Part shown: piece by piece, positions 20,321 through 29,251 of the stretch
Position numbering within the stretch: position 1 is the first letter of the stretch
Layout of the letters: each line of letters opens with the position of its first letter
Origin: a virus
Virus record (IMG/VR): IMGVR_UViG_3300033144_005525
Span: 31,402-63,401 of that record
Strand: one strand, 5' to 3'
Length of the DNA: 32,000 nucleotides
Made by a program: the position numbers and the translations under genes
Notes under the pieces: model-generated
The model's input: the letters and a program-made list of their open reading frames with translations, nothing else
What the model was told of the DNA's origin: nothing
Databases searched by the model: none

Positions 20321-20514
20321 TCAAACACAAAGGATCCTGCAGGAAGAAGATGGCGAACATCTGCAACTGCATAGTGGATGATGACGGGATGGAGTTTTTC
20401 CAGTGCTGTGGCTGGTACCACAAAGGCTGCAAAGGCCGGATCACCGACGAACACAAACGCCGGAAGTGGAGTCGGCACCTCGCCCGGGGCTCGAACCCGG
20501 CACAGCAAGATTAG
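20317..20514 (+). CDS. Cys-rich hypothetical protein
   Basis: GTGA overlap start. The 3' end runs antisense into tRNA-Arg(TCT). Confidence 0.4.
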   Translation: MIKHKGSCRKKMANICNCIVDDDGMEFFQCCGWYHKGCKGRITDEHKRRKWSRHLARGSNPAQQD

Positions 20515-20544
20515 AAGTCTCGCCTGAGATCCTTCTCGCGAGGC
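20476..20544 (-). tRNA. tRNA-Arg(TCT)
   Basis: Anticodon arm CGAGA-CTTCTAA-TCTTG, T-arm CCGGG-TTCGAGC-CCCGG. Reduced D-arm GAGA-AGGA-TCTC. 69 nt. Confidence 0.7.
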
Positions 20545-20558
20545 AGAAAGAATTAGCA

Positions 20559-21197
20559 ATGGCGAGACCAACAACCCTACCCCCCAAAGACGCCTACAAG
20601 CATGGGACCAGGGCTCGTTACACCGTGGGCTGCAGATGCAAGCCATGTACGAAATCGAACGCAGACGCCTATCACGACCTACAGAAGAAGGCTAAGGAAG
20701 CTGCTCTCAAGCTCAAACCTCGCCGGCCTGTAAAGGTCACTAGGAAATGGACGAAGCCAGACGGAACCACTGGAACCCGTACCTACAAAAACGGGTGCCC
20801 TGGGTTTGATGGCAAATGCCTGACACGGTCTTTTCTCCGCAGCGATTCGGTTGGAGGGATCTGTGGGAAGTGCAGGCTGAGTCTCGTATGGAACGGACTG
20901 GTATCAGCAGAGAAATCCAAGAACCGTTTGCTGAAGTTCTCTGCACAGGGAGTCGGACGACGTGTTATTGGAGCCATCAGTGGAGTGGCTCTAACGGTCC
21001 TGGCCGACGTCAAGTCTGGAAAGAAGAAGCAGGTACGAGCCAACACAGAGAAGGCTATCCTGGCCATCGACTTTTCCGACCTACCTCCCAAGTCTCTGGA
21101 GAAGGTCCGTGCGTTGGATCGTATTGCAGAAGCCCAAGAGCTATCCGATATCGACATACAGAGCAGGATCGGTAAAGCACTTCAGGGGTGTGAGTAG
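20559..21197 (+). CDS. hypothetical protein with HGTxxxYxxGCRCxxC motif
   Basis: Internal ATG (MARPTTLPPKDAYKHGTRARYTVGCRCKPC...). The upstream part of the ORF overlaps a tRNA. Confidence 0.55.
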   Translation: MARPTTLPPKDAYKHGTRARYTVGCRCKPCTKSNADAYHDLQKKAKEAALKLKPRRPVKVTRKWTKPDGTTGTRTYKNGCPGFDGKCLTRSFLRSDSVGGICGKCRLSLVWNGLVSAEKSKNRLLKFSAQGVGRRVIGAISGVALTVLADVKSGKKKQVRANTEKAILAIDFSDLPPKSLEKVRALDRIAEAQELSDIDIQSRIGKALQGCE

Positions 21198-21284
21198 CGG
21201 AAGGAGCGGGAGTCGGACCCGCAAGGCCCTTTCGAGCTCGACTGCTTTCCAAGCAGCTGCCATCACCCATTGGCTTGCCCTTCC
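21198..21284 (-). tRNA. tRNA-Ser(GGA)
   Basis: Class II, 87 nt. Anticodon arm GCTGC-TTGGAAA-GCAGT, long variable arm, T-arm GCGGG-TCCGACT-CCCGC. Confidence 0.8.
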
Positions 21285-21297
21285 AAGGAGGAGAACG

Positions 21298-21537
21298 ATG
21301 AAAACACCGACCATCCAGTCTGTGCACGCGGATCACGATAAGCAACTGAAGAAGATCCTCTTCGAACTCGTTAAGCTGGGAGCGACCAGCTTCTCTCTGA
21401 TCCACGACGAGATTTTGGTGAGTATCCAAGAAGTGACTGAAGAGAACATGCCGAGAGTGCGGGAGCTCCTGCACGAGCTCACCAACAACCGTCTCTCGAA
21501 TACGATTGGGAGGAGAGTAGGAGAGTCGAACTCCTAA
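21298..21537 (+). CDS. hypothetical protein
   Basis: AAGGAGG SD. The 3' end overlaps tRNA-Ser(TGA) antisense. Confidence 0.45.
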   Translation: MKTPTIQSVHADHDKQLKKILFELVKLGATSFSLIHDEILVSIQEVTEENMPRVRELLHELTNNRLSNTIGRRVGESNS

Positions 21538-21596
21538 GGCCTTTCGGCTCGTCTGATTTCAAATCAGGTGCGGTCTCCACATCTGCTTGACTCTCC
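21508..21596 (-). tRNA. tRNA-Ser(TGA)
   Basis: Class II. Anticodon arm CCTGA-TTTGAAA-TCAGA, variable arm with a GAAA loop, T-arm AGGAG-TTCGACT-CTCCT. Confidence 0.8.
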
Positions 21597-21604
21597 AAAT
21601 GCAG

Positions 21605-21636
21605 CTAGGTAGAGAGCACAAGGACTCCCTACCTAG
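21605..21636 (-). terminator. hairpin downstream of HNH gene (weak terminator candidate)
   Basis: 8-bp stem CTAGGTAG/CTACCTAG. Only a short T tract follows on the minus strand. Confidence 0.3.
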
Positions 21637-21640
21637 CCGA

Positions 21641-22168
21641 CTAGGACTCGAGCTCGGACGTCCAGTAGAGATAATCCCTCCAGGCGTCTGGTGCGTTCTC
21701 TCTACTAAGCCGGAGGACCATAACTGGAACCCAGGTAGGTCGGATGGGCTGTGTTCGCAGCTTCATCCTGGCCTGGCTGGGAGTCCGGCCACCCTTCTTC
21801 AAGTTGCACGGTGAGCAGGAGATGACGATGTTCGTCCACTCTGTCCTGCCTCCCTGTGAACGTGGAACGACGTGGTCGTAGGTGCTCTTCTCTATATCGA
21901 GCTTTGTCCCGCAGTACTGGCACCTGTACTTGTCACGAGCACAGATGTTGACTCGAGAGAACTTGATCGGCTTCTTCCTCCTCTTGAACGCCCTGAGTAG
22001 GCGGACAACGGCCGGCATCTTGATAACCAAGGAAGTGGACCGGATGTCCTGGTCGTACTCCTCGATGACTTCGACCTTGCCCAGGAAGAGCAAGGTCAAG
22101 GCTCGCTGCCATGAGACGACTTTGATCGGCTCGTAGCCTTGCGACAGCATGAGTGTCTGCGTTGTCAT
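21641..22168 (-). CDS. HNH endonuclease
   Basis: CQYCG...YDHVVPRSQGGRTEWTNIVISCSPCNLKKG. ATG at 22168 (MTTQTLMLSQGYEPI...) preferred over the upstream start at 22228, which overlaps a tRNA. Confidence 0.8.
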   Translation of the reverse strand: MTTQTLMLSQGYEPIKVVSWQRALTLLFLGKVEVIEEYDQDIRSTSLVIKMPAVVRLLRAFKRRKKPIKFSRVNICARDKYRCQYCGTKLDIEKSTYDHVVPRSQGGRTEWTNIVISCSPCNLKKGGRTPSQARMKLRTQPIRPTWVPVMVLRLSRENAPDAWRDYLYWTSELES

Positions 22169-22203
22169 GTCGCCCCTTTCTTTGGTTAGTTGCCTGAATA
22201 TAG

Positions 22204-22276
22204 TACCAGCGGTGAGATTCGAACTCACACTTGCAGCGTTCTTAGCACTGTGCCTCTGCCGTTGGGCTACGCTGGC
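22204..22276 (-). tRNA. tRNA with Leu-type anticodon AAG, short variable loop
   Basis: Anticodon arm CAGTG-CTAAGAA-CGCTG, T-arm GTGAG-TTCGAAT-CTCAC. G1-U72, A73, 5-nt variable loop. 73 nt. Confidence 0.65.
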
Positions 22277-22288
22277 GTAGGAGAATCA

Positions 22289-22846
22289 ATGAGCAATACG
22301 TTTCTGTCGGCTGATCATCACTTCGGTCACCGTAAATTCATCATAGAGAAAGAGCGTCCCTTCTCCAGTGTCGAGGAAATGGATGAGGCACTGATCCAAC
22401 GCTGGAGAGAGCAGGTCGGACCCAAAGACATCGTGTACTACTTGGGAGATCTATCGTTCTCCAACAAGACCAGAACCCTGGCTATCCTTGACCAGCTCCC
22501 TGGACACATCCACTACATCCTTGGAAACCACGAGAAGTCCATCAAGGGTGAGGTTGCGACTCGGTTCGAGCGGGTGACTCACTACTACGAGATCAGGCAC
22601 CTGGTTGGGGGAGAGAAGGTCAAGATCATCCTGAGCCACTACCCCTTCGAGGTCTGGAACATGTACCACTACGGATCCTGGCATTGCCACGGACACAGTC
22701 ATGGGTCACTGACTCAGACCCGAGACATCCGTCGCATGGACGTCGGTGTGGATACCCGCAGTAACCTCGACCTGTGGCCTCTCGAAGAGGTGGAGGAGAT
22801 CATGAAGGCTCGTGGGATCGATAACGTCGACCACCACACCGAGTAG
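22289..22846 (+). CDS. calcineurin-like metallophosphoesterase
   Basis: Motifs SADHHFGH, YLGDLSF, ILGNHEK and CHGHSHG. ATG at 22289, downstream of the tRNA. Confidence 0.75.
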   Translation: MSNTFLSADHHFGHRKFIIEKERPFSSVEEMDEALIQRWREQVGPKDIVYYLGDLSFSNKTRTLAILDQLPGHIHYILGNHEKSIKGEVATRFERVTHYYEIRHLVGGEKVKIILSHYPFEVWNMYHYGSWHCHGHSHGSLTQTRDIRRMDVGVDTRSNLDLWPLEEVEEIMKARGIDNVDHHTE

Positions 22847-22920
22847 TACCGGCGGTCGGATTCGAACCGACACTGCATGGCTTTTGAAACCAATGAGTCT
22901 TCCAATTGCTCGACGCCGGC
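22847..22920 (-). tRNA. tRNA with Leu-type anticodon CAA, short variable loop
   Basis: Anticodon arm TTGGT-TTCAAAA-GCCAT (one mismatch), T-arm GTCGG-TTCGAAT-CCGAC. G1-U72, A73. Confidence 0.6.
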
Positions 22921-22924
22921 GTAG

Positions 22925-22955
22925 TAGGGGTAGAGGGATTCGAACCCTCACTGAA
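22925..22955 (-). pseudogene. orphan tRNA 3' portion (variable loop + T-arm + acceptor 3' strand)
   Basis: GAGGG-TTCGAAT-CCCTC followed by TACCCCT-A. No D or anticodon arm follows, because the HNH stop codon is 5 nt away. Confidence 0.55.
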
Positions 22956-22959
22956 GGGC

Positions 22960-23433
22960 TTACTTTCTGTTGTTCTTCCCGCAGTACGTCTCTGTCTGAG
23001 AATGGCAGTTGGGGCAGAGCAGCCTGAGGTTGCTGACTCTGTTATCTCTCCTGTTTCCATTCTTGTGGTCCAGGTGTAGAGACAACTCTTCTCCTCCCCA
23101 CTTCAATATTCCACATGCGGAGCACTTGTATTTCAAGACTCCTTCTCTCACTAACCTAGATTTCAGGCTCCCATTATTGGTGTACTTACTGTTCCTGACG
23201 AGAATCTTCTTGAGTGGAATCGTCCCTGGAGGAGATGGGAGGGTTTTGCCCTTGTTATGGCTTTGTCCGAGAAAATGAGATGTATCTAGACCAAGCCTTT
23301 CTATGTGGAGCTGAATACTGTGGTAGTTACCACCAGCCGGGACTAGTCCAATACCCCTTAGCACTTGTGCCAGGGACGTGGCCTTCTTGACCTCCCGTTT
23401 CAGCTCGGGATCTGTCCAAGTTCTATCTGACAT
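22960..23433 (-). CDS. HNH endonuclease
   Basis: LHLDHKNGNRRDNRVSNLRLLCPNCH. Confidence 0.8.
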   Translation of the reverse strand: MSDRTWTDPELKREVKKATSLAQVLRGIGLVPAGGNYHSIQLHIERLGLDTSHFLGQSHNKGKTLPSPPGTIPLKKILVRNSKYTNNGSLKSRLVREGVLKYKCSACGILKWGGEELSLHLDHKNGNRRDNRVSNLRLLCPNCHSQTETYCGKNNRK

Positions 23434-23435
23434 TG

Positions 23436-23509
23436 TGCTGGAGGAGGGAGTCGAACCCTCAACAATCCGAGTTTAAGTCGGACGCCGTTTCCAATTAGGC
23501 TACTCCAGC
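23436..23509 (-). tRNA. tRNA with Leu-type anticodon TAA, short variable loop
   Basis: Anticodon arm TCCGA-CTTAAAC-TCGGA, T-arm GAGGG-TTCGACT-CCCTC, acceptor GCTGGAG/CTCCAGC, A73. Confidence 0.7.
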
Positions 23510-23542
23510 TATACTGAAATGGCAATAGATGAACATTCATAT

Positions 23543-23567
23543 GCCTCTTCCGTTGGGCTACACCCCC
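23543..23567 (-). pseudogene. orphan tRNA 5' portion (acceptor 5' strand + D-arm)
   Basis: GGGGGTG-TA-GCCC-AACGGAAGA-GGC. The D-arm is near-identical to that of tRNA(AAG) at 22204. No anticodon or T arm follows. Confidence 0.55.
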
Positions 23568-23576
23568 AGGAGAACA

Positions 23577-23834
23577 ATGCGATGCCACGAGTGTAAGAAC
23601 TGTTTGGATCTAGAGAAAGTGAGGGCATCTGTTTTCAAAGTCGCCAACCCTCCATTCTCTCATGCATGTCAAGACGTCATAGATCTGTGGAACACAGAGC
23701 TTCAGCGACTACCGTGCCTAGTTCTAGCTGTGGACTGCCATACCTGCCATGCAGATCCCGGAGTACCATGTCGTTGGGGAGAGAGGTTCCACCCCACAAG
23801 AGTAGTACACGCACGTGTTCTCGCTGAGAGTTAG
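23577..23834 (+). CDS. Cys/His-rich zinc-finger-like protein
   Basis: AGGAG SD (MRCHECKNC...CHTCHADPGVPCRWGERFHPTR). Confidence 0.5.
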   Translation: MRCHECKNCLDLEKVRASVFKVANPPFSHACQDVIDLWNTELQRLPCLVLAVDCHTCHADPGVPCRWGERFHPTRVVHARVLAES

Positions 23835-23908
23835 TACCTGCGGTCGGAGTCGAACCGACACTTCACACGTTCTGAGCGTGCTCTCTCTGCCAATTGGAGT
23901 ACGCAGGC
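23835..23908 (-). tRNA. tRNA with Leu-type anticodon CAG, short variable loop
   Basis: Anticodon arm GCACG-CTCAGAA-CGTGT, T-arm GTCGG-TTCGACT-CCGAC. G1-U72, A73. Confidence 0.7.
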
Positions 23909-23913
23909 AATAG

Positions 23914-23982
23914 TGCCACTGGACGGAATTGAACCGCCTCATCGGGTTTCGGAGACCCGAGTTAGGATCCACCTTCAGTGAC
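23914..23982 (-). tRNA. tRNA-Arg(CCG)
   Basis: Anticodon arm CGGGT-CTCCGAA-ACCCG, T-arm GGCGG-TTCAATT-CCGTC. Reduced D-arm AGG-TGGAT-CCT. Confidence 0.7.
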
Positions 23983-24016
23983 AGGAATAATAGTTCGCGA
24001 CCGTTGGGGAAATCCC

Positions 24017-24208
24017 ATGATCGGCAGCAGTGACTACAACACAGCAACTTGGGGTCCAGGGTCTAGTCCCCCTGGTGTACTGCAGTGTCAAAGCTGTTGT
24101 GTCTTCCTCTCCATAAACGGAATCAACGCCAAAGAGAAATACTGCTCTGAGTCGTGTAAACAGAAAGCACCCCCGGACGGAATCGAACCGCCTCACCAAC
24201 GTTCGTAG
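24017..24208 (+). CDS. small Cys-rich protein
   Basis: Internal ATG of ORF 23978-24208 (CQSCC...CSESC). The 3' end is antisense to tRNA-Arg(ACG). Confidence 0.35.
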   Translation: MIGSSDYNTATWGPGSSPPGVLQCQSCCVFLSINGINAKEKYCSESCKQKAPPDGIEPPHQRS

Positions 24209-24237
24209 CGTCGGGCTCAGTATCCACTGTCGGGGGC
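24168..24237 (-). tRNA. tRNA-Arg(ACG)
   Basis: Anticodon arm CGACG-CTACGAA-CGTTG, T-arm GGCGG-TTCGATT-CCGTC. Reduced D-arm CAGT-GGAT-ACTG. Confidence 0.7.
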
Positions 24238-24238
24238 A

Positions 24239-24313
24239 TGGAGCCCAAGGAGGGAGTCGAACCCTCAACCTCACCCTTACCAAGGGCGCGCTCTGCCAGT
24301 GAGCTACATGGGC
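24239..24313 (-). tRNA. tRNA-Thr(GGT)
   Basis: Anticodon arm CGCCC-TTGGTAA-GGGTG, D-arm GCTC-ACTGGCA-GAGC. CCA encoded. Confidence 0.8.
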
Positions 24314-24447
24314 AAGGACACTCTTCGCCGGCGGGCTATGCTCCCGCGTCTCCCTGGTGGTAAAGCGTCGCTGGGCCAGAAGGCGACTCCCACCTGACGG
24401 ATTGCTTCCACGTCTGGGTGTCTTGGCGCAGACCTCAGCAAAGAGTG
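24314..24447 (-). other. structured non-tRNA spacer (~134 nt)
   Basis: The ends pair (CACTCTT / AAGAGTG). Internal hairpins GCGGG-7nt-CCCGC, GTCGC-11nt-GCGAC and GGTGG...CCACC. No T-loop motif. Confidence 0.3.
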
Positions 24448-24522
24448 TGGTGCGGATGGCAGGGATCGAACCTGCTATCTCTTGCGTGTCGAGCAAGCGT
24501 CTTACCTCTTGACCACATCCGC
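24448..24522 (-). tRNA. tRNA-Val(GAC)
   Basis: Anticodon arm CTTGC-TCGACAC-GCAAG (C at position 33), T-arm GCAGG-TTCGATC-CCTGC. CCA encoded. Confidence 0.7.
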
Positions 24523-24525
24523 TTG

Positions 24526-24607
24526 TGGCCACCCCGGTCTCTATCCTCGCGTGTGGCTGGCCGTGTCACAGCCCTTTGGACTCACAACGAGGAGACCGAG
24601 GTGGCGG
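24526..24607 (-). ncRNA. rod-like hairpin ending in CCA (acceptor-minihelix-like)
   Basis: 13-bp terminal helix CCACCTCGGTCTC/GAGACCGGGGTGG. The mismatch is G-U only on the minus strand. The helix is followed by an encoded CCA, and there is no cloverleaf. Confidence 0.35.
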
Positions 24608-24680
24608 CGTCCCTGGGGAGAATCGAACTCCCGTCTCCGGCTTGAGAGGCCGGCAAACTGGGCCACTGTTCTACAGGGAC
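24608..24680 (-). tRNA. tRNA-Glu(CTC)
   Basis: Anticodon arm CCGGC-CTCTCAA-GCCGG, T-arm GGGAG-TTCGATT-CTCCC, G73. Confidence 0.8.
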
Positions 24681-24686
24681 AAGACT

Positions 24687-24762
24687 TGGCGCACCCCCTG
24701 GGAATCGAACCCAGCTCCCTCCGGTTAACAACCGTCCGCAATCACCAGATTGCTAGAGGTAC
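24687..24762 (-). tRNA. tRNA-Asn(GTT), weak anticodon stem
   Basis: Loop TTGTTAA closed by only 3 bp, D-arm GCAA-TCTGGTGA-TTGC. CCA encoded. Confidence 0.6.
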
Positions 24763-24766
24763 TCAG

Positions 24767-24838
24767 CTCCGAGAGAGAGACTCGAACTCCCAACCAGACC
24801 GTTAACAGCGGCCCGCTCTACCATTGAGCTACCTCGGA
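24767..24838 (-). tRNA. tRNA-Asn(GTT)
   Basis: Anticodon arm GGCCG-CTGTTAA-CGGTC, D-arm GCTC-AATGGTA-GAGC, U1-A72. Confidence 0.8.
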
Positions 24839-24842
24839 ATAG

Positions 24843-24991
24843 TGGGCCCCGGATGAATCGAACATCCATCTCCCGCCTTTCGGTTCCTCAAAGGGCTACG
24901 ACCTAGTACTTGAGTTAGCCACCTCTTTTCCGAGTCGCTGGGCTAAACCCCCTCGAGTCAACGGGCGCTCTACCGATTGAGCTAAAGACCC
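24843..24991 (-). tRNA. tRNA gene with a 77-nt structured insertion in the anticodon loop (anticodon undetermined)
   Basis: GGGTCTT-TA-GCTC-AATCGGTA-GAGC-G-CCCGT...[84 nt]...GCGGG-AGAT-GGATG-TTCGATT-CATCC-GGGGCCC-A. All four stems are in register except that 84 nt replace the 7-nt loop. Confidence 0.55.
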
Positions 24992-24995
24992 ATAG

Positions 24996-25030
24996 AGCTG
25001 GTGAGAGGAGTCGAGCCCACCCACCACAAC
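24996..25030 (-). pseudogene. 3' part (nt 39-73) of a split Thr(TGT)-like tRNA
   Basis: GTTGT-GGTGG-GTGGG-CTCGACT-CCTCT-CACCAGC-T. The acceptor strand is perfectly complementary to the 5' part at 25575-25611. Confidence 0.6.
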
Positions 25031-25038
25031 CAATATAG

Positions 25039-25111
25039 AGCCGGAGACAGGAATTGAACCCGCAACCCTCTGCTTACAAAGCAGTAGCTCTACCAATTGA
25101 GCTACTCCGGC
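25039..25111 (-). tRNA. tRNA-Thr(TGT)
   Basis: Anticodon arm ACTGC-TTTGTAA-GCAGA, D-arm GCTC-AATTGGTA-GAGC, T-arm GCGGG-TTCAATT-CCTGT. The 5' 37 nt overlap the HNH 3' end. Confidence 0.8.
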
Positions 25112-25532
25112 GACTTCGTCTTTCGTGAGTACGCTGCCTGTGGCAATTAGCACACACGAGATCGCATTTCTCGATCTCTTCCAGCACCTTCTTCTCGGTT
25201 GAGGACCTCACCAAGGTCGCGACAGCTGCCACTTTCTTACTACCCGGTCTGTGATCGAAATCCATTATCCACGGAGAGTAGGTCCTCCCACAATCCAAGC
25301 ACGGTTTGGTTTTCAGCCCATCTACAAGGACCTTCAACCTAATTCGCAATGCGTTGACGTTCCTTTTGGCTCTGGCTATCTCATGCTTCTTGTTGTTCTT
25401 GTAGTAGATCTTGTAGTAGTTCGCGGTGCATTCCTTACAGATCGAACCCAATCCGCCCCTCTTCTTAGAACAGGTCTTCGAGGTTCGTCTCTTCCCGCAC
25501 TTGCTACATGCCTTCTTCGGGGTGACTGGCAT
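25074..25532 (-). CDS. HNH endonuclease
   Basis: CSKCG...CLDCG...MDFDHRPGSKK...CDLVCANCHRQRTHER. Start is either ATG 25532 or TTG 25550. The stop lies inside tRNA-Thr(TGT). Confidence 0.75.
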   Translation of the reverse strand: MPVTPKKACSKCGKRRTSKTCSKKRGGLGSICKECTANYYKIYYKNNKKHEIARAKRNVNALRIRLKVLVDGLKTKPCLDCGRTYSPWIMDFDHRPGSKKVAAVATLVRSSTEKKVLEEIEKCDLVCANCHRQRTHERRSRRSSSIGRATAL

Positions 25533-25574
25533 CCTCTGAATGTAAACCAAGGAGAGTTGTAAATCAATCCATGT

Positions 25575-25611
25575 TTACAAAACCATTGCGCTACCGTTGC
25601 GCCACACCAGC
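25575..25611 (-). pseudogene. 5' part (nt 1-38) of a split Thr(TGT)-like tRNA
   Basis: GCTGGTG-TG-GCGC-AACGGTA-GCGC-A-ATGGT-TTTGTAA, then an unrelated leader of the HNH gene. Confidence 0.65.
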
Positions 25612-25622
25612 AGGAAAAACAA

Positions 25623-26132
25623 ATGGGAACAAAACCTAGAAACAACAATCCCTACAACATGGTTCCTTTCATACTCAAACCCAAACCTAGTCGTATTCGG
25701 TACTACTTGATACACAAGGACAACTCGGAGAACACCTTAAAGGCAATACGTCGTCGAAACCCTTTGCATCGAGGAATGCTGGAAAACAACTGGAACTGGT
25801 ATCTTGAGTCAAGAGCTAATCATGTCGTAATTGCCTACGACCCAAAATCCAGAGACCCCATCGTTGGTGCATTCAAGTTCGACTTTGGACGTAGATGGCA
25901 CTCAATTAACTCACATGGCACCTGGGTTCGTTCTTCCTTCCAACGCAGGGGGATAGCGAAGACCATGTGGATCACTGCGATCAGGAAGTTGAAGGTAGAG
26001 AGAGTAGAAGTACGAGTCGTATCAGACAGAGGACTCACCCTCATCTCGTCCATCAAGAAGAAGTTCCCACGAGTTCGATTCCAACTATGGGAAGACGGAG
26101 ACAGAAAACTCCGTCATCTGAAGGCTGCCTAG
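25623..26132 (+). CDS. GNAT-family N-acetyltransferase
   Basis: Motif A-like VRSSFQRRGIAKTMW (Q/RxxGxA). AGGAAA before the ATG. Confidence 0.5.
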   Translation: MGTKPRNNNPYNMVPFILKPKPSRIRYYLIHKDNSENTLKAIRRRNPLHRGMLENNWNWYLESRANHVVIAYDPKSRDPIVGAFKFDFGRRWHSINSHGTWVRSSFQRRGIAKTMWITAIRKLKVERVEVRVVSDRGLTLISSIKKKFPRVRFQLWEDGDRKLRHLKAA

Positions 26133-26136
26133 TTAG

Positions 26137-26208
26137 ATCCGGGACTGGGATTCGAACCCAAGATTGGCGGAGTCAAAGACCGCTGTCCTACCGTTGAACG
26201 ACCCCGGA
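26137..26208 (-). tRNA. tRNA-Gln(TTG)
   Basis: Anticodon arm GCGGT-CTTTGAC-TCCGC, U1-A72, T-arm CTGGG-TTCGAAT-CCCAG. Confidence 0.8.
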
Positions 26209-26209
26209 A

Positions 26210-26284
26210 TGGAGCTCGAGGTCAGATTCGAACTGACAACCTTTCCCTTACGAAGGGACTGCGCTGCCATTGCGCCACACGAGC
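26210..26284 (-). tRNA. tRNA-Thr(CGT)
   Basis: Anticodon arm GTCCC-TTCGTAA-GGGAA, D-arm GCGC-AATGGCA-GCGC. CCA encoded. Confidence 0.8.
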
Positions 26285-26285
26285 T

Positions 26286-26359
26286 TGGAGCGGATGAGGA
26301 GATTCGAACTCCTGTCATCAGATTGGAAGTCTGAGGCCCTGCCGTTGGACGACACCCGC
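26286..26359 (-). tRNA. tRNA-Gly(TCC)
   Basis: Anticodon arm TCAGA-CTTCCAA-TCTGA, U73. CCA encoded. Confidence 0.85.
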
Positions 26360-26360
26360 T

Positions 26361-26436
26361 TGGGGTGATCGATGGGATTCGAACCCACATCTCCCGATTC
26401 ACAGTCGGGATGCACTACCGTTGTGCTACGAACACC
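26361..26436 (-). tRNA. tRNA-His(GTG)
   Basis: Anticodon arm TCCCGA-CTGTGAA-TCGGGA. C73 with an encoded G-1. CCA encoded. Confidence 0.85.
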
Positions 26437-26437
26437 A

Positions 26438-26511
26438 TGGTCCCTCCGTGAAGAATCGAACTCCCGTCTGTCGGTTATCAGCCGACGGCTCTACCACTGA
26501 GCTACGAAGGG
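26438..26511 (-). tRNA. tRNA-Ile(GAT)
   Basis: Anticodon arm GTCGG-CTGATAA-CCGAC, D-arm GCTC-AGTGGTA-GAGC. CCA encoded. Confidence 0.85.
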
Positions 26512-26516
26512 GTGTT

Positions 26517-26588
26517 TGGTACCGAGACTCGGAATTGAACCGAGCAGAGCAGCCTTGTAAGAGCCGCCTCCGACCCAGCGGCCTCGGC
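26517..26588 (-). tRNA. tRNA-Val(TAC)
   Basis: Anticodon arm CGGCT-CTTACAA-GGCTG, T-arm CTCGG-TTCAATT-CCGAG. Reduced D-arm CCG-CTGGGT-CGG. CCA encoded. Confidence 0.7.
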
Positions 26589-26592
26589 ATAG

Positions 26593-26664
26593 TCGGAGTA
26601 GGGAGAATCGAACTCCCGATCTCACCGTCCCGAACGGTGCGCGATACCACTTCGCTACACTCCG
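26593..26664 (-). tRNA. tRNA-Pro(CGG)
   Basis: Anticodon arm CACCG-TTCGGGA-CGGTG, C1-G72, D-arm GCGA-AGTGGTA-TCGC. Confidence 0.85.
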
Positions 26665-26756
26665 AATTGTTCCCGAACGGGACAATTCGATTGATCACAG
26701 ACTTGATCTACCCAAGAACACCCCGTACAGAACTGTTTGCTCCCGATCGGGAATAG

Positions 26757-26827
26757 TCGCAACGTTGGGACTCGAACCCAAGCGGTCTCGCTTATGAGAC
26801 GAGCCTCCTAGCCCGTAGGTCGTTGCG
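26757..26827 (-). tRNA. tRNA(CAT), elongator Met or Ile2
   Basis: Anticodon arm CTCGT-CTCATAA-GCGAG, T-arm TTGGG-TTCGAGT-CCCAA. Reduced D-arm CCTA-CGGGC-TAGG. Confidence 0.7.
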
Positions 26828-26833
26828 ATAGAG

Positions 26834-26905
26834 TGGGCCTCCAGGGAATCGGACCCTGCCCTACCGGTTATGAGCCGGCGGCTCTACCCAGTGAGCTAAA
26901 GGCCC
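26834..26905 (-). tRNA. tRNA(CAT), elongator Met or Ile2
   Basis: Anticodon arm GCCGG-CTCATAA-CCGGT, D-arm GCTC-ACTGGGTA-GAGC, T-loop TCCGATT. Confidence 0.8.
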
Positions 26906-26907
26906 GG

Positions 26908-26977
26908 AGCATGTGTCGAGAATCGAACTCGCCCAGCACGGGTTGCAACCGTACACCAGCTCCAGCTGGTCACATGC
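26908..26977 (-). tRNA. tRNA-Cys(GCA)
   Basis: Anticodon arm TACGG-TTGCAAC-CCGTG, U73. Reduced D-arm CAGC-TGGA-GCTG. Confidence 0.75.
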
Positions 26978-26979
26978 AA

Positions 26980-27054
26980 TGGAGCAGGTGATGGGAATCG
27001 AACCCACCTATACGACGTTGGCAACGTCGTGCCTCACCAGTCGGCTTCACCTGC
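26980..27054 (-). tRNA. tRNA-Gly(GCC)
   Basis: Anticodon arm CGACG-TTGCCAA-CGTCG, U73. CCA encoded. Confidence 0.85.
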
Positions 27055-27262
27055 TTGACCCCGCCCCACTCAATAACGGCCCGTCGACCGTATCGGATAG
27101 CGTGGGAATCGGGAACGTCCACTATCAAAACGTCTCGAGCATTGGTACCTTCTGTTTGCGCGTCAGGGAGTTGCCTGTCCCCTGTAACGGTGGTCGACCT
27201 TGGTCGGCGGAGAAGCAAACGGTATCCGACTCCGTCAAAAGCAACAGGCACTTTTACGTTAG
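27055..27262 (-). other. ~208-nt structured spacer without canonical tRNA
   Basis: Long-range GTTTGC/GCAAAC pairing. Hairpins CAGGG-11nt-CCCTG and CGAC-CTTG-GTCG. One degenerate T-arm-like hairpin, GTGG-13nt-CCAC. Confidence 0.3.
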
Positions 27263-27335
27263 TCGGGGTGAGTGGATTCGAACCACCGGCTTCTCGCTTC
27301 CAAGGCGAGATGTCTGACCACTGACTTACACCCCG
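27263..27335 (-). tRNA. tRNA-Pro(TGG)
   Basis: Anticodon arm CTCGC-CTTGGAA-GCGAG, C1-G72, T-arm GGTGG-TTCGAAT-CCACT. Confidence 0.85.
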
Positions 27336-27337
27336 AA

Positions 27338-27409
27338 TGGTGGAGAATGAGGGTAACGCTCCCTCTCGGCCTTCCTTGCAAGGGATGGCTCCGGCCTTCC
27401 GGATTCCCC
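27338..27409 (-). tRNA. tRNA-Ala(TGC)
   Basis: Anticodon arm CATCC-CTTGCAA-GGAAG. G3-U70 present, A73, CCA encoded. Unusual T-loop AGCGTTA and reduced D-arm CCGG-AAGG-CCGG. Confidence 0.7.
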
Positions 27410-27414
27410 GTTAG

Positions 27415-27486
27415 TAGCCCCAGCGAGACTCGAACTCGCTTCCCCGGATTGAAAGCCCAGGATCCTAACCCATGGACGATGGGGCC
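27415..27486 (-). tRNA. tRNA-Glu(TTC)
   Basis: Anticodon arm CTGGG-CTTTCAA-TCCGG, T-arm GCGAG-TTCGAGT-CTCGC. Confidence 0.85.
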
Positions 27487-27487
27487 G

Positions 27488-27573
27488 TGGAGGAGGGCAT
27501 CGGATTCGAACCGAACGCTTTACAGCGCCGTCGACTTAGCAGGACGCGACAGCCCCTGGCTGCATTACCCTCC
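27488..27573 (-). tRNA. class II tRNA, probable Ser(GCT)
   Basis: 86 nt. Variable arm CGCT-GTAA-AGCG. Loop CTGCTAA, but the anticodon stem has only 3/5 pairs. CCA encoded. Confidence 0.55.
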
Positions 27574-27595
27574 AAGGTAAAAGCTTTTATCTTAG

Positions 27596-27680
27596 CGGAA
27601 GCGGGGAGAGTCGGACTCCCAAGGCCGTTAAGCTCGCCTGGTTTCGAACCAGGTGCAGTCGCCAATCTGCTTGCGCTTCC
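27596..27680 (-). tRNA. tRNA-Ser(CGA)
   Basis: Class II, 85 nt. Anticodon arm CCTGG-TTCGAAA-CCAGG, T-arm GGGAG-TCCGACT-CTCCC, G73. Confidence 0.8.
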
Positions 27681-27741
27681 AAAACACGCGGGCGTCCTGC
27701 CATTAGACGATCACTCCTCGTCGGTCAGGGCCGAACATCAA

Positions 27742-27766
27742 CAGAGCTCCTGGGACTCGAACCCAG
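27742..27766 (-). pseudogene. tRNA-like 3' fragment (T-arm + acceptor 3' strand)
   Basis: CTGGG-TTCGAGT-CCCAG-GAGCTCT-G. No matching 5' acceptor or anticodon arm found upstream. Confidence 0.35.
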
Positions 27767-27877
27767 ATTTCCCGCTTCTAAAATGACCTGCCCGCCGCTG
27801 TACGGACGGAGTTCACCTCTCGGTGCCAGACGCACCACGGCTGCGCTGGTTGGTGTTTAACGCCTACAGGTCGGCGG

Positions 27878-27950
27878 CGCCTCCGAAGGGAATCGAACCC
27901 TCCCACACAGCATAGACAGTGCCGCAGCACACCCAGGCGCTCGCGAAGGC
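27878..27950 (-). tRNA. tRNA-Asp(GTC)
   Basis: Anticodon arm CGGCA-CTGTCTA-TGCTG (T at position 37), D-arm AGCG-CCTGGGTG-TGCT, G73. Confidence 0.75.
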
Positions 27951-27959
27951 AAATCGGAG

Positions 27960-28033
27960 TCCCCTCGAGAGGAATTGAACCTCTAACCTTCCGGGTAAGA
28001 ACCGGCTGCGCTTCCTGATTGCGCCACGAAGGG
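27960..28033 (-). tRNA. tRNA-Lys(CTT)
   Basis: Anticodon arm GCCGG-TTCTTAC-CCGGA, D-arm GCGC-AATCAGGAA-GCGC, T-loop TTCAATT. Confidence 0.8.
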
Positions 28034-28040
28034 AAAGAAC

Positions 28041-28319
28041 ATGAACGAATGGAAAGACATATCCACCTACACCAAGAACGATGAAGAGAGGATCCCAAGC
28101 ATTTGGGAACTACGAGTCGGGAAGGTCCGTTTATTGGTCCATCGACACCTACACTACGAAGAGGATCAATGGCTCATGTCTGTGCACGGCGATGTCTCGG
28201 TGACCAATAGCCCTCTCCTGAAGAAGGATGTGGATGAAGCAAAGAGAGAAGCCATACAGGCTATGTTCACCTCTCTGGATAGGATGGCCAGAGAGTTCCG
28301 TGCCTATCTACGCAAGTAG
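28041..28319 (+). CDS. hypothetical protein
   Basis: 92-aa ORF with AAGGGAAAG before the ATG. Confidence 0.5.
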   Translation: MNEWKDISTYTKNDEERIPSIWELRVGKVRLLVHRHLHYEEDQWLMSVHGDVSVTNSPLLKKDVDEAKREAIQAMFTSLDRMAREFRAYLRK

Positions 28320-28386
28320 CAGACAACCGGGGAATCGAACCCCGCTGAGCGGTTTTGGAGACCACTATGATCCCAGATCGTCGTCT
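28320..28386 (-). tRNA. tRNA-Trp(CCA)
   Basis: Anticodon arm GTGGT-CTCCAAA-ACCGC, T-arm CGGGG-TTCGATT-CCCCG, G73. Reduced D-arm GATC-TGG-GATC. 67 nt. Confidence 0.7.
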
Positions 28387-28395
28387 ATATAGGTG

Positions 28396-28457
28396 CCCGC
28401 CTTCCAAGAAGTGCGCAGAGAGAGCATGCCACTCCCCCGCCTTCCCCTCAGTGCGCA
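28396..28457. repeat. two direct copies of CCCGCCTTCC-N5-GTGCGCA, 40 nt apart
   Basis: Copies at 28396-28417 and 28436-28457, in a tRNA-free spacer. Confidence 0.6.
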
Positions 28458-28464
28458 ACACCAG

Positions 28465-28538
28465 TGCCCCCGGGCGGATTTGAACCACCGACGCACGGCT
28501 CTTCAGGCCGTCGCTCTACCAAGCTGAGCTACAAGGGC
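28465..28538 (-). tRNA. tRNA-Phe(GAA)
   Basis: Anticodon arm ACGGC-CTGAAGA-GCCGT, D-arm GCTC-AGCTTGGTA-GAGC. Confidence 0.85.
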
Positions 28539-28654
28539 ATAATTCGGGGCGTGGTTGCGCCCCGTCATCATTCACACTATTCAATTACCACTACTACTAG
28601 CCATGCAGCGCCGTGAACCAGTCAATCAAGATGGCCACACGCACGCCATCGCTA

Positions 28655-28728
28655 TGGTTCGGGATTCAGGATTCGAACCTGAGATGAGCGGGTCAGAGCC
28701 GCTAGTGATACCGTTTCACCAATCCCGA
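28655..28728 (-). tRNA. tRNA-Gln(CTG)
   Basis: Anticodon arm AGCGG-CTCTGAC-CCGCT, U1-A72. CCA encoded. Confidence 0.85.
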
Positions 28729-28731
28729 TCG

Positions 28732-28806
28732 TGGTACCCCCGGAGGGACTCGAACCCACAACCAACCGGTTAAAAGCCGGGTGCTCTACCATTGAGCTAC
28801 GGAGGC
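28732..28806 (-). tRNA. tRNA-Lys(TTT)
   Basis: Anticodon arm CCCGG-CTTTTAA-CCGGT, D-arm GCTC-AATGGTA-GAGC. CCA encoded. Confidence 0.85.
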
Positions 28807-28929
28807 ATGATCGTCATCCTCCGTGCGTTTTCCCTCTCCGTGAGAACAGTCCAGGCAACCGCAGGTGGCGCAGATCTCGCCCCCTCTTGCCCAGCAGCAG
28901 TCCTCACAATTGCATCTCCAGTCACACAT
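28786..28929 (-). CDS. Cys-rich mini-protein (47 aa)
   Basis: AGGAGA SD 6 nt before the ATG (MCDWRCNCEDCCWARGGEICATCGCLDCSHGEGKRTEDDDHASVAQW). 9 Cys in the first 28 aa. The stop lies inside tRNA-Lys(TTT). Confidence 0.45.
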   Translation of the reverse strand: MCDWRCNCEDCCWARGGEICATCGCLDCSHGEGKRTEDDDHASVAQW

Positions 28930-28939
28930 CGTTTTCTCC

Positions 28940-29027
28940 TGGTGGGGGTAGGAGGGTTCGAACCTCCAATGCCCTTAAGGCGCCCGGGTTACAGCCGGGT
29001 ACGGGTACCAACTCCCGCGCCACCCCC
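28940..29027 (-). tRNA. tRNA-Tyr(GTA)
   Basis: Class II, 88 nt. Anticodon arm CCCGG-CTGTAAC-CCGGG, long variable arm. CCA encoded. Confidence 0.85.
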
Positions 29028-29061
29028 AAACCGAAAAACCACCCGAGGTTTCCCTGGGTGG
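29028..29061 (-). terminator. rho-independent terminator
   Basis: Minus-strand CCACCCAGG-GAAA-CCTCGGGTGG followed by TTTTTCGGTTT. Confidence 0.6.
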
Positions 29062-29089
29062 CTTCCTAGCGGTGTATCGATCAGTCCTG

Positions 29090-29251
29090 CTAGGTTGCCA
29101 CCCCTCCATAATTCCAGACCAAGCTCTTCGGGGACGCTATATGCGAGGTCTGGGGCTGCTCTTCGAAACCGAAGCGCACGCACGAATCCAGACCTGCGAG
29201 GGTAATCCTCGCGGCTGGTTTTAGTGTCGTGGCTTGGGATCTGGAAGTCAT
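29090..29251 (-). CDS. 53-aa ORF or structured RNA (ambiguous)
   Basis: AAGGA before the ATG at 29251 (MTSRSQATTLKPAARITLAGLDSC...). The region is also highly self-complementary (GGTCTGG...CCAGACC, GCGAGG-ATTAC-CCTCGC). Confidence 0.3.
   Translation of the reverse strand: MTSRSQATTLKPAARITLAGLDSCVRFGFEEQPQTSHIASPKSLVWNYGGVAT

Follow-up and report, generated by a model that had tools for sequence, protein, structure and literature searches.

Four arm-less leucine tRNAs in a phage tRNA array belong to a known short form and do not point to recoding

A 32,000-nucleotide stretch of viral DNA, referred to here as the window, contains four tRNA genes with leucine anticodons and the compact class I shape. 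The first-pass annotation held that bacterial and known phage tRNA-Leu are class II molecules with a long variable arm, and it asked whether these four tRNAs are charged with leucine at all and by which synthetase, raising a suspicion of recoding. Our analysis indicates that they are very probably genuine class I leucine tRNAs, charged by the host LeuRS and reading the standard Leu codons.

Fold and genomic setting of the leucine tRNAs

The four genes lie inside an array of tRNAs that are all encoded on the minus strand, with small ORFs between them. The features of the array and of the Leu region are as follows:

20477..29340, minus strand: tRNA array, with 35 ARAGORN calls and one tRNA(CAU) called by Rfam only
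21641..22168, minus strand: HNH endonuclease gene (Pfam HNH_5, 4e-14), immediately downstream of Leu(AAG)
22204..22276, minus strand: class I tRNA-Leu(AAG), ARAGORN and Rfam, 53.1 bits
22289..22846, plus strand: ORF between Leu(AAG) and Leu(CAA), on the strand opposite to the tRNAs
22847..22920, minus strand: class I tRNA-Leu(CAA), ARAGORN and Rfam, 45.6 bits
22925..22959, minus strand: 3′ fragment of a putative disrupted tRNA, read from the sequence
22960..23433, minus strand: HNH ORF (Pfam HNH_3, 6e-07; HNH, 6e-04)
23436..23509, minus strand: class I tRNA-Leu(UAA), ARAGORN and Rfam, 66 bits
23529..23834, plus strand: small zinc-finger ORF (Pfam Phage_zn_bind_8, 1.9e-08)
23542..23567, minus strand: 5′ fragment of the putative disrupted tRNA (acceptor 5′ strand and D arm, positions 1–26)
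23835..23908, minus strand: class I tRNA-Leu(CAG), ARAGORN and Rfam, 50.7 bits

ARAGORN and the Rfam model RF00005 made the same calls for these four minus-strand tRNAs of 73–74 nt, with Rfam scores of 45.6–66 bits against a gathering score of 29. Covariance-model alignments gave the anticodons AAG, CAA, UAA and CAG as first assigned, and no different ones. In the same alignments the variable loop is 5 nt long in all four molecules (CAAGU in Leu(AAG)), the long variable arm of the class II shape is absent throughout, and the D stem has 3 bp with position 13:22 unpaired. The D loops are CAACGGCAGA, CAATTGGAAGA, TAATTGGAAAC and CAATTGGCAGA, that of Leu(AAG) (AACGG) being 1 nt shorter than the other three. 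Every anticodon loop has 7 nt with U33 and A37, on which ARAGORN and the Rfam model agree, and in Leu(CAA) the topmost anticodon-stem position is a U27-U43 mismatch. None of the four genes encodes CCA, and the 3′ trailer A73-C is common to all of them. The class I shape with 5-nt variable loops described in the first-pass annotation is thus confirmed by both ARAGORN and the Rfam covariance model. Its further view, that the four tRNAs form a paralogous family with A73 in 4/4, G1-U72 in three (AAG, CAA and CAG, with G1-C72 in UAA) and a shared 3-bp D stem, is borne out by the alignments, as is a D arm of the Leu type. As it had also observed, the Ser and Tyr tRNAs of the same array are long-armed: four Ser tRNAs of 86–88 nt and one Tyr tRNA of 88 nt. 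A search of the 19.5–30.5 kb region at a relaxed Rfam threshold found no other Leu tRNA, whether short- or long-armed. Five ARAGORN calls in the array were without an Rfam match at E ≤ 0.5. Weak plus-strand matches to Rfam 'plastid' models correspond to tRNAs in reverse complement and were set aside as chance or artefact.

Among the neighbouring genes, the HNH gene at 21641..22168 keeps its position in relatives, with tblastx identities of 67% in the 201-kb relative L364 and 64% in L176. The plus-strand ORF at 22289..22846 had no Pfam match and no relatives among viral contigs; by our own reading of its DHHFGH and GNHE motifs, its product may be metallophosphoesterase-like. The zinc-finger ORF is inserted, on the opposite strand, between Leu(CAG) and the disrupted tRNA, and an AGGAG motif suggests that its true start probably lies near 23568.

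The two tRNA fragments enclose Leu(UAA) together with the HNH ORF at 22960..23433, Leu(UAA) being directly upstream of that ORF. The 5′ fragment (GGGGGTG TA GCC CAACGGAAGA GGC A) was called neither by ARAGORN nor by Rfam, and a single nucleotide separates its D arm from that of Leu(AAG). The 3′ fragment (GCCCT TCAGT GAGGG TTCGAAT CCCTC TACCCCT A) runs from the 3′ strand of the anticodon stem through a 5-nt variable loop and the T arm to the acceptor 3′ strand and A73, and the C-U-A trailer of the Leu family follows it directly. Its T arm and acceptor strand are similar to those of Leu(UAA) in L364, and the acceptor halves of the two fragments pair at 7/7 positions, including G1-U72 and G7-U66. 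We infer from these letters that the fragments represent one disrupted tRNA of the Leu family. An intron-split gene was ruled out, because neither an anticodon loop nor the 5′ half of an anticodon stem is present in the intervening sequence.

L364 carries the same AAG-CAA-UAA run of Leu tRNAs in contiguous form, with no counterpart of the HNH ORF at 22960..23433 within it; a called HNH gene of L364 (17307–17837) adjoins its Leu(AAG). The orthologs have 66–72% identity to the window tRNAs and differ from them by 6–7 two-sided compensatory pair changes (seven in Leu(AAG), six in Leu(UAA)) with no broken pairs, which shows selection on the fold of the window Leu tRNAs. By synteny, the slot of the window Leu(CAG) is occupied in L364 by a Leu(UAG) with an 11-nt variable region, and within the phage lineage variable regions of 5, 7, 11 and about 17 nt occur. 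In another relative, L365, no tRNA lies closer than 10 kb to the shared gene. A nucleotide search of 50,697 phage records with the tRNA region found no relatives, the only matches being at the level of tRNAs, to Caulobacter phage CcrBL9 and to DSS3_MAL1. Against cultured phages, ThyX reached at most 46% identity (Erwinia, Myxococcus and Achromobacter phages), which is uninformative for the host; the one lead comes from the Polyangia and Haliangiales MAG contigs L166 and L176.

The compensatory changes bear on the reading of the four genes as decaying or non-functional copies in a mobile, HNH-ridden array. Such decay would fit the disrupted Leu-family tRNA, the five ARAGORN calls without Rfam match, the HNH genes and small ORFs between the tRNAs and the U-U mismatch in Leu(CAA). 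However, all four tRNAs score 45–66 bits on the tRNA model with their stems intact, their L364 orthologs have diverged without breaking a pair, and the four do not duplicate one another and fit the codon usage. We consider decay highly improbable.

Leucine identity and the reading of leucine codons

The tertiary identity set that LeuRS uses in tRNA-Leu of E. coli and Aquifex consists of U8-A14, A15-U48 and suitably placed G18G19 (PMC6614811, PMC2377443), and removal of the long arm mainly lowers the affinity of Aquifex LeuRS (PMC2377443). The bases U8, A14, A15, U48 and G18G19 are present in 4/4 window Leu tRNAs, which would allow the tertiary pairs U8-A14 and A15-U48 to form. Elsewhere in the window the combination of U8, A14A15, U48 and A73 occurs only in two Lys tRNAs; in the control set it was found in 38 of 46 scored tRNA-Leu versus roughly 8% of other isotypes, and it is accordingly not exclusive to Leu. 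In a crude nearest-neighbour test of the D arms, with the anticodon excluded, tRNA-Leu was the commonest neighbour class for AAG, CAA and CAG. Long-armed tRNA-Leu made up 15 of the top 20 neighbours of Leu(CAA) in the reference set, and short tRNA-Leu 13 of the top 20 of Leu(CAG). The D arm of Leu(UAA), with Leu at 3 of the top 20 neighbours, was not clearly Leu-like.

LeuRS, SerRS and AlaRS ignore the anticodon, and for this reason identity switches at Leu anticodons are known, as in the CUG-clade yeasts. Recoding or deliberate mistranslation would mean that the window tRNAs are charged with another amino acid and that CUN and UUR codons are read differently. This reading draws on the class I shape, which is atypical for tRNA-Leu, and on the rejection of one type I tRNALeu by E. 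coli LeuRS in vitro (PMC6614811). The identity marks of the window tRNAs argue against it: the G3:U70 mark of Ala is missing because pair 3:70 is C-G or U-A (C-G, C-G, U-A and C-G in the four), the long arm and G73 that mark Ser are absent in 4/4, and A73 together with the LeuRS tertiary set is found in all of them. Moreover, Actinomycetota, whose genetic code is the standard one, carry this type of tRNA as a core chromosomal gene.

The codons themselves were assessed in two conserved phage genes, ThyX and the gene at 13124-14026, aligned with 238 homologs. The 59 Leu codons aligned to Leu at 0.39–0.95 per codon and 0.60 overall, as strongly as the query's own Ile (0.50) and Val (0.66) aligned to themselves, in a test that is blind to low-level or conservative misincorporation (Ile, Val, Met). 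Leu was the commonest aligned residue for 6/6 Leu codons, CTA and TTA being represented by 4 and 1 alignment columns, respectively, and all 28 columns with at least 80% Leu in the homologs use Leu codons in the window. These alignments indicate that the Leu codons of the window genes are read as leucine, by standard decoding. We therefore regard recoding as extremely unlikely; the evidence points instead to normal leucine decoding with precedent in relatives, the outcome that the first-pass annotation had itself named as speaking against recoding. Leu accounts for 8.7% of codons, and the comparison with phage codon usage that had been suggested shows the four-tRNA set to be non-redundant and matched to that usage.

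We propose that the window tRNAs descend from bacterial-type tRNA-Leu and have kept the features used by bacterial LeuRS, namely U8-A14, A15-U48, a 3-bp D stem whose Leu-specific D loop carries G18G19, and A73. They would have lost the variable arm, a part that at least some bacterial LeuRS can do without. During infection the tRNAs would be transcribed from the phage tRNA array and trimmed, and a host enzyme would add the CCA end, since the Leu tRNA genes encode none; the host LeuRS would then charge them with leucine, and they would read the standard Leu codons. The Ser and Tyr tRNAs would have kept their arms because the arm is a recognition element for bacterial SerRS and TyrRS.

Anticodon AAG had also been singled out, on the grounds that A34 in bacteria is normally confined to tRNA-Arg(ACG). 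AAG is indeed the only A34 anticodon among the tRNAs of the window, but it is less exceptional than was stated: Lactobacillales have a documented tRNA-Leu(AAG) that is read as IAG (PMC13249217), and Leu(AAG) is the second most frequent A34 tRNA among the phage loci examined. No GAG or UAG tRNA was found in the 19.5–30.5 kb array region, and the 12 loci with Leu(AAG), all of them partial, are likewise without Leu(GAG). CUC, CUU and CUA together make up 52% of the Leu codons. No deaminase domain was found among the 30 window ORFs scanned. Codon coverage and the co-occurrence in partial loci suggest that AAG is probably converted to IAG by the host TadA; IAG, CAG, UAA and CAA together would then suffice for the six Leu codons, with no need of a GAG or UAG tRNA.

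Charging could alternatively depend on a LeuRS encoded elsewhere in the phage genome of at least 191 kb and not on the host enzyme. Some jumbo phages encode synthetases, this genome is itself of large size (a contig of 191,126 bp carries an identical ThyX), and type I forms may be rejected by the host LeuRS. Yet no synthetase domain was detected among the 30 largest window ORFs or in the called genes of 21 kb of L364, and small phages (Felixounavirus, about 88 kb) carry short Leu tRNAs only, in the stretch examined. A phage-encoded LeuRS is in our judgement very unlikely, and we infer that the tRNAs are charged with leucine by the host LeuRS.

Occurrence and meaning of short-arm tRNA-Leu

A structural pattern for short tRNA-Leu matched at least 120 viral contigs and at least 120 cellular genomes, the cellular matches listed being mostly lone chromosomal genes of Actinomycetota. 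Among the matches listed (214 unique related sequences), positions that the pattern left free were U8 in 98–100%, U48 in 99% and A73 in 99%, and stems were 95–99% paired with many pair types. The viral matches listed include 73 loci that combine short Leu with long Ser or Tyr tRNAs. In a control sample of phage contigs chosen by an unrelated motif, 14 of 50 tRNA-Leu were short, compared with 1 of 34 tRNA-Ser, and tRNA-Leu of 74 nt are annotated in deposited genomes of Felixounavirus, Lactobacillus, Streptomyces and Mycobacterium phages. The premise that bacterial and known phage tRNA-Leu are class II does not hold against these viral, cultured-phage and actinobacterial occurrences, nor against the leucylation of a short-loop tRNA-Leu by a bacterial LeuRS (PMC6614811). 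As a textbook rule it often fails, with roughly one quarter of tRNA-Leu short in the phage control sample. The window Leu tRNAs are ordinary members of a known, little-publicised class and not a case of recoding. A suspected genetic-code oddity is thereby removed for this window, and what is left is a tRNA shape with bacterial and phage precedents.

Why the shape was kept is a matter on which a further reading, compatible with the main explanation, has been considered: the tRNAs would still carry Leu, but the arm-less shape would be an adaptation against host defence or competition, allowing escape from nucleases or toxins that recognise class II tRNA-Leu. Evasion of anticodon nucleases by phage tRNAs is an established idea. 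The enrichment of short Leu over short Ser in phage tRNA arrays in the control sample speaks for such an adaptation, as does the variable-region series within the phage lineage, in which the arm has seemingly been lost or shortened repeatedly. In addition, phages of E. coli, Lactobacillus and Streptomyces share very similar short forms, unlike phage T5, whose class II Leu was the one long-armed example from an E. coli phage in the comparison. On the other hand, this analysis identified no defence system aimed at the tRNA-Leu variable arm, actinobacterial chromosomes carry the same form outside any phage context, and a tolerated deletion, with a LeuRS that does not need the arm, combined with genome compaction fits the data equally well. 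We consider the defence explanation unlikely.

Equally doubtful, in our view, is a broader proposal in which a single short-arm lineage spreads horizontally, is arm-less for protection from host factors aimed at class II tRNA-Leu, and is self-sufficient with A34 as inosine. If it were true, the arm-less shape would protect Leu decoding, and the four-tRNA Leu set with inosine would be sufficient in itself. The marks of such a lineage are U8-A9, an unpaired C13-A22, an AAUUGG(C/U)AGA D loop, a loop-final U (usually AGU), A73 and frequent G1-U72, and its range would span phages of Proteobacteria, Firmicutes and Actinobacteria as well as actinobacterial chromosomes. In one study E. coli LeuRS rejected the Streptomyces type I tRNA, yet Felix-O1-like coliphages have three short and no long Leu tRNAs in the stretch examined. 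With their variable regions of graded length, the phage and its relatives offer a series for work on LeuRS acceptance and arm loss.

Comparison with known systems

The closest characterized counterpart is the type I tRNALeu(CAA) of S. coelicolor, which is leucylated by its own LeuRS (Fan et al. 2019, NAR, PMC6614811). For this enzyme the 5-nt loop length and U8-A14 matter and the long arm is not required, and the Streptomyces type I tRNA is also a substrate of human mitochondrial LeuRS, although ScoLeuRS does not charge the mitochondrial tRNA (PMC6614811). E. coli LeuRS failed to charge the S. coelicolor type I tRNA in vitro (PMC6614811), and acceptance by an arbitrary host LeuRS is for this reason not to be assumed; type I forms would call for a cognate LeuRS with a specific leucine-specific domain. 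Together with the 74-nt Leu(UAA) and Leu(CAA) of Actinomycetota, the S. coelicolor tRNA shares with the window the 5-nt loop, A73 and U8-A14. A D stem of 3 bp that carries a D loop of the CAAUUGGCAGA type is common to them as well, and the D arms of the window CAG and AAG tRNAs are nearly identical to the actinobacterial UA GCC CAAUUGGCAGA GGC A. S. coelicolor, however, has a single type I form among its five Leu isoacceptors, the others being long-armed, whereas all four are type I in the window, including AAG and CAG, both rare among the cellular matches listed. G1-U72 occurs in three of four window tRNAs versus 15 of 93 unique cellular sequences.

Short tRNA-Leu are annotated in several cultured phages (Felixounavirus vB_EcoM-LTH02, Lactobacillus phage Bacchae, Streptomyces phage Genie2, Rhodococcus phage Trina and many Mycobacterium phages), in which, as in the window, tRNA-Leu of 74–79 nt stand beside tRNA-Ser of 86–90 nt. 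In LTH02 and Bacchae, 3/3 Leu tRNAs are short within the 3-kb stretch compared. The cultured-phage short Leu tRNAs resemble those of the window in U8-A9, C13, the AAUUGG(C/U)AGA D loop, A73, an often present G1-U72 and a variable loop with a final U (mostly AGU), although neither a nucleotide relationship nor a close protein relationship between these phages and that of the window could be detected. Their Leu sets consist of UAG, CAA and UAA, in contrast to AAG, CAG, CAA and UAA in the window, and the Felixounavirus genes encode CCA, whereas the window genes do not. The Lactobacillales tRNA-Leu(AAG)/IAG (PMC13249217, PMC11472039) represents, like that of the window, an A34 Leu gene in a bacterial-type system without a GAG isoacceptor; after deamination by TadA, its IAG would read CUU, CUC and CUA, as the window AAG would.

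The tRNA clusters of mycobacterial chromosomes (PMC6582537) share with the window a dense array, a short-loop Leu tRNA and an HNH endonuclease inside the array. Their short tRNA-Leu(TAG) differs from the normal long-armed isoacceptor of the genome (PMC6582537), and there a cellular chromosome carries a single short Leu tRNA, while here a phage-like contig carries four. Animal mitochondrial tRNA-Leu, charged by a bacterial-type LeuRS, also combine the class I shape with A73. The mitochondrial tRNAs have degenerate D and T loops, whereas those of the window have the canonical G18G19 and a T-loop of canonical length with UUCGA.

Structure of the four leucine tRNAs and their array

According to ARAGORN, 35 tRNA genes lie between 20.4 and 29.0 kb of the window, every one on the minus strand. 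Four of these encode leucine tRNAs:

Leucine tRNA genes of the window, called by ARAGORN and the Rfam tRNA model
22204-22276, minus strand, tRNA-Leu(AAG)
22847-22920, minus strand, tRNA-Leu(CAA)
23436-23509, minus strand, tRNA-Leu(UAA)
23835-23908, minus strand, tRNA-Leu(CAG)

Their Rfam covariance model scores were 45.6–66 bits (gathering score 29), and in the Rfam alignments all four had a variable loop of 5 nt and an unpaired 13:22, leaving a 3-bp D stem. Both tools agreed on the four anticodons. The class I shape reported in the first-pass annotation is confirmed, as is its remark that serine and tyrosine tRNAs of the same array have long arms (four Ser and one Tyr, 86–88 nt, versus the short Leu). 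The Ser and Tyr synthetases use the long arm, which probably explains why these tRNAs keep it. A73 and the 3' trailer A73-C were common to the four Leu tRNAs, and G1-U72 was present in AAG, CAA and CAG. A relaxed Rfam scan of 19.5–30.5 kb detected no additional Leu tRNA of either class. CCA was encoded by some array tRNAs (20.4–29.3 kb; for example Thr-GGU, Val-GAC, Gly, His and Tyr) and by none of the four Leu, whereas it is encoded in two of the three short Leu genes of L364, a relative of the window phage, and in the short Leu genes of Felixounavirus.

Elsewhere in the array, a tRNA(CAU) at 29268-29340 (minus strand) was found by Rfam only (37.7 bits) and missed by ARAGORN, bringing the CAU tRNAs to three. 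The tRNA-Arg(CCG) at 23914-23982 (minus strand; 69–70 nt, Rfam 34.6 bits) has a reduced, atypical D arm; a similar gene occupies the same place in L364 (about 18190-18262), just upstream of the Leu run, and is adjoined there by an unannotated Arg(ACG)-like sequence. Five further ARAGORN calls represent highly unusual tRNAs or else were made in error:

ARAGORN calls with no Rfam tRNA match at E<=0.5
20477-20548, minus strand, Arg-UCU
26517-26597, minus strand, Val-UAC (81 nt, overlapping tRNA-Pro)
26756-26827, minus strand, Met-CAU
27595-27680, minus strand, Ser-CGA
27876-27950, minus strand, Asp-GUC

Relatives of the window phage and a probable disrupted fifth tRNA

The window has a G+C content of ~54%, and none of 50,697 deposited phage genomes is related to it at the nucleotide level. 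Its genes include ThyX, an Amidase_2 protein, a C92 peptidase, a sigma-70 region-4 protein, two HNH endonucleases and a PARP-like protein. An identical ThyX protein is carried by a JGI contig of 191,126 bp, and the window thus belongs to a large phage-like genome. The protein encoded at 13124-14026 has a 72% identical homolog on L364 (a 201,567-bp ENA contig), which shares the PARP-like and further genes with the window in the same order. The protein of 13073-14029 (plus strand) has no Pfam match, over 6,000 homologs in the database (E<=1e-8), an acidic tail at its end and a GDFDPSGEDM motif that we take to be Toprim-like. The PARP-like protein (8645-10114, plus strand) contains WGR, PARP regulatory and PARP catalytic domains (catalytic E=6e-32) and is kept in L364 at 5670-7106. 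In both genomes it is adjoined by a thymidylate synthase gene, ThyX (PF02511; 7657-8508, plus strand) in the window and the classical enzyme (PF00303; 4576-5526) in L364; at this position one enzyme has been exchanged for a non-homologous one of identical function.

The L364 array contains short forms of Leu(AAG), Leu(CAA) and Leu(UAA) in the order of the window and adjoining the same HNH gene. In place of the window's Leu(CAG) it carries a Leu(UAG) whose variable region measures 11 nt. Between window and L364, Leu(AAG) is 66% identical with seven two-sided compensatory pair changes and Leu(UAA) 72% identical with six, and no pair is broken in either. Such changes are the mark of selection for a cloverleaf that works, and the alternative that these are dead tRNA genes is disfavoured on this account. 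In the more distant relative L367 (202 kb), Leu(UAA) has a 7-nt variable region and the CAA, CAG and GAG tRNAs are 89–90 nt. Within this phage group, variable regions of four lengths thus occur side by side (5, 7, 11 and about 17 nt). Two Myxococcota-binned contigs also carry arrays with short Leu tRNAs, L166 from a Polyangia MAG (3897-4335; UAA, AAG, CAG) and L176 from a Haliangiales MAG (162 kb; GAG, CAG, CAA), the latter with an HNH protein of 64% identity to the window gene at 21641-22168. They provide a weak lead to the host or lineage of the group.

The four Leu tRNAs of L364 are contiguous within 320 nt (17870-18189), whereas the same run extends over 1.7 kb in the window (22204-23908), spread by metallophosphoesterase-like, HNH and zinc-finger ORFs, two of the three on the opposite strand. 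The window also has two fragments that read as the halves of a fifth tRNA of the Leu family:

Halves of the disrupted tRNA
23542-23567, minus strand, 5' half: acceptor 5' strand and D arm, 1 nt off Leu(AAG)
22925-22959, minus strand, 3' half: anticodon-stem 3' strand, 5-nt loop, T arm, acceptor 3' strand, A73 and the C-U-A trailer of the Leu family

The anticodon-stem 5' strand and the anticodon loop are missing, and in L364 it is Leu(UAA) whose acceptor and T arm are similar. The halves flank 22960-23509 and are kept apart by an HNH ORF, an intact tRNA-Leu(UAA) and a further 32 nt. From this layout, the fifth tRNA looks like a resident gene broken by an HNH-plus-tRNA cassette.

Short tRNA-Leu in other phages and in cells

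Our search pattern required AATTGG as a Leu-type D loop, an NAR anticodon, a T loop and the exact spacing given by a variable loop of 5 nt. Three of the four window Leu tRNAs matched it, against none of 100 window shuffles. In IMG/VR at least 120 contigs with at least 130 tRNAs were retrieved (anticodons TAG, CAA, TAA, AAG and CAG), and at least 120 cellular genomes were matched. Among the cellular matches listed, the main genera were Mycobacterium, Nocardia, Rhodococcus, Gordonia, Corynebacterium, Arthrobacter, Bifidobacterium and Rothia, with near-identical 74-nt tRNA-Leu(UAA) and (CAA), and the short tRNA was solitary in 92 of 118 loci. The upstream flank is partly conserved between genera, and the Nocardia gene adjoins Ppx/GppA and POT-transporter genes; these are chromosomal genes, not prophage cargo. 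At positions left free by the pattern, 214 unique sequences showed U8 in 98–100%, U48 (the last variable-loop base) in 99% and A73 in 99%; their four stems were 95–99% paired with many pair types, and 13:22 was almost never paired.

Because pattern-selected loci are biased, a control set was drawn with an unrelated D-arm motif (at least 120 viral loci, partial; 592 tRNAs among the matches listed). Here 14 of 50 tRNA-Leu were under 80 nt, versus 1 of 34 Ser and 3 of 15 Tyr (rough counts, given partial loci and the matches listed). Even as rough counts, these establish the short form as a sizeable minority of phage tRNA-Leu. Cultured phages have it as well, under the plain annotation tRNA-Leu: Felixounavirus vB_EcoM-LTH02 (UAG, CAA and UAA, annotated as 74–76 nt, with a 90-nt Ser next to them), Lactobacillus phage Bacchae (three short Leu accompanied by 88-nt Ser), Streptomyces phage Genie2, many Mycobacterium phages and Rhodococcus phage Trina. 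In contrast, phage T5 tRNA-Leu is an 85-nt class II molecule. The premise that bacterial and phage tRNA-Leu are always class II was therefore mistaken, given at least 120 viral contigs, at least 120 genomes and these cultured phages.

A common body plan (U8-A9, NCC D stem, C13, AAUUGG(C/U)AGA, A22, variable loop ending in U, mostly AGU) is found in the Felixounavirus, Lactobacillus phage and Streptomyces phage loci and in actinobacterial loci L121-L240. In viral contigs there is also a second type, with U8-G9 and AAAUUGGUAAA. These sequence types hint that one or two short-Leu lineages may have spread, rather than many independent arm losses.

Decoding, leucine identity and charging

CUC (30%), CUA (11%) and CUU (10.5%) together account for 52% of window Leu codons, and the relaxed scan (19.5–30.5 kb) found no GAG or UAG tRNA. 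We infer that A34 of Leu(AAG) is deaminated; the resulting IAG would read these three codons, and CAG, UAA and CAA would complete the set. An A34 Leu tRNA is less unusual than the first-pass annotation had it, since Leu(AAG) ranks second in frequency among A34 tRNAs in the loci fetched (10 versus 43 Arg(ACG)) and TadA-made tRNALeu(IAG) is documented in Lactobacillales (PMC13249217). Leu(GAG) was present in none of the 12 fetched loci having Leu(AAG).

The first-pass annotation had also doubted charging with leucine and raised recoding at CUN/UUR codons. ThyX and the 13124-14026 gene were each aligned with 119 homologs (47–75% identity):

Share of Leu among the aligned homolog residues, by window codon
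CTT, 0.39
CTC, 0.60
CTA, 0.46 (thinly sampled)
CTG, 0.63
TTA, 0.95 (thinly sampled)
TTG, 0.71

Leu, 8.7% of window codons, was the most frequent aligned residue for all six codons. Taken together, the Leu codons aligned to Leu at a rate of 0.60, a value intermediate between those for Ile (0.50) and Val (0.66) of the query. In the 28 columns with >=80% Leu in homologs, the window uses a Leu codon without exception. The alignments argue against reassignment, and recoding is disfavoured, although low-level conservative misincorporation would escape this test.

All four tRNAs carry U8, A14, A15, U48, G18G19 and A73, a signature shared by 38 of 46 scored control tRNA-Leu (long and short) versus about 8% of other tRNAs, and by two non-Leu window tRNAs. 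In a crude neighbour test excluding the anticodon, tRNA-Leu was the commonest class for the D arms of AAG, CAA and CAG (for CAA, long-armed Leu made up 15 of the top 20, the best being TGGCGGAATTGGTAGACGCA), and the UAA D arm had no clear class. G3:U70 and a long arm are absent from all four, which gives no indication of an Ala or Ser identity; to our knowledge, the synthetases other than those for Leu, Ala and Ser read the anticodon. The four are very probably functional short-arm leucine tRNAs whose amino acid is attached by the host LeuRS. In bacteria this enzyme reads A73 and the tertiary core, and at least some forms of it do without the arm. Charging by a phage-encoded LeuRS is highly improbable; 30 scanned window ORFs contained no synthetase, deaminase or nucleotidyltransferase domain. 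A putative anti-defence reason for retention of the short shape would be compatible with host charging.

Short tRNA-Leu of phages appears to be little discussed: in the full-text collection searched, the phrase 'type I tRNALeu' and its variants occurred only in Fan et al. (NAR 2019, PMC6614811). There, Streptomyces coelicolor tRNALeu(CAA) is type I with a 5-nt variable loop, and is leucylated by the organism's single LeuRS; its loop length and U8-A14 are important. A comparative study describes a mycobacterial chromosomal tRNA cluster with a short-loop tRNA-Leu(TAG) and an HNH gene (PMC6582537), and in Aquifex LeuRS removal of the variable arm mainly reduces affinity (PMC2377443). Against this background the window is a rather complete example, with all four Leu tRNAs short, one A34 and a graded series in relatives. 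Human mitochondrial LeuRS charges the S. coelicolor tRNA and E. coli LeuRS does not, an ability that maps to the leucine-specific domain (PMC6614811); this reported failure and the under-described phage forms together pose a directly testable question.
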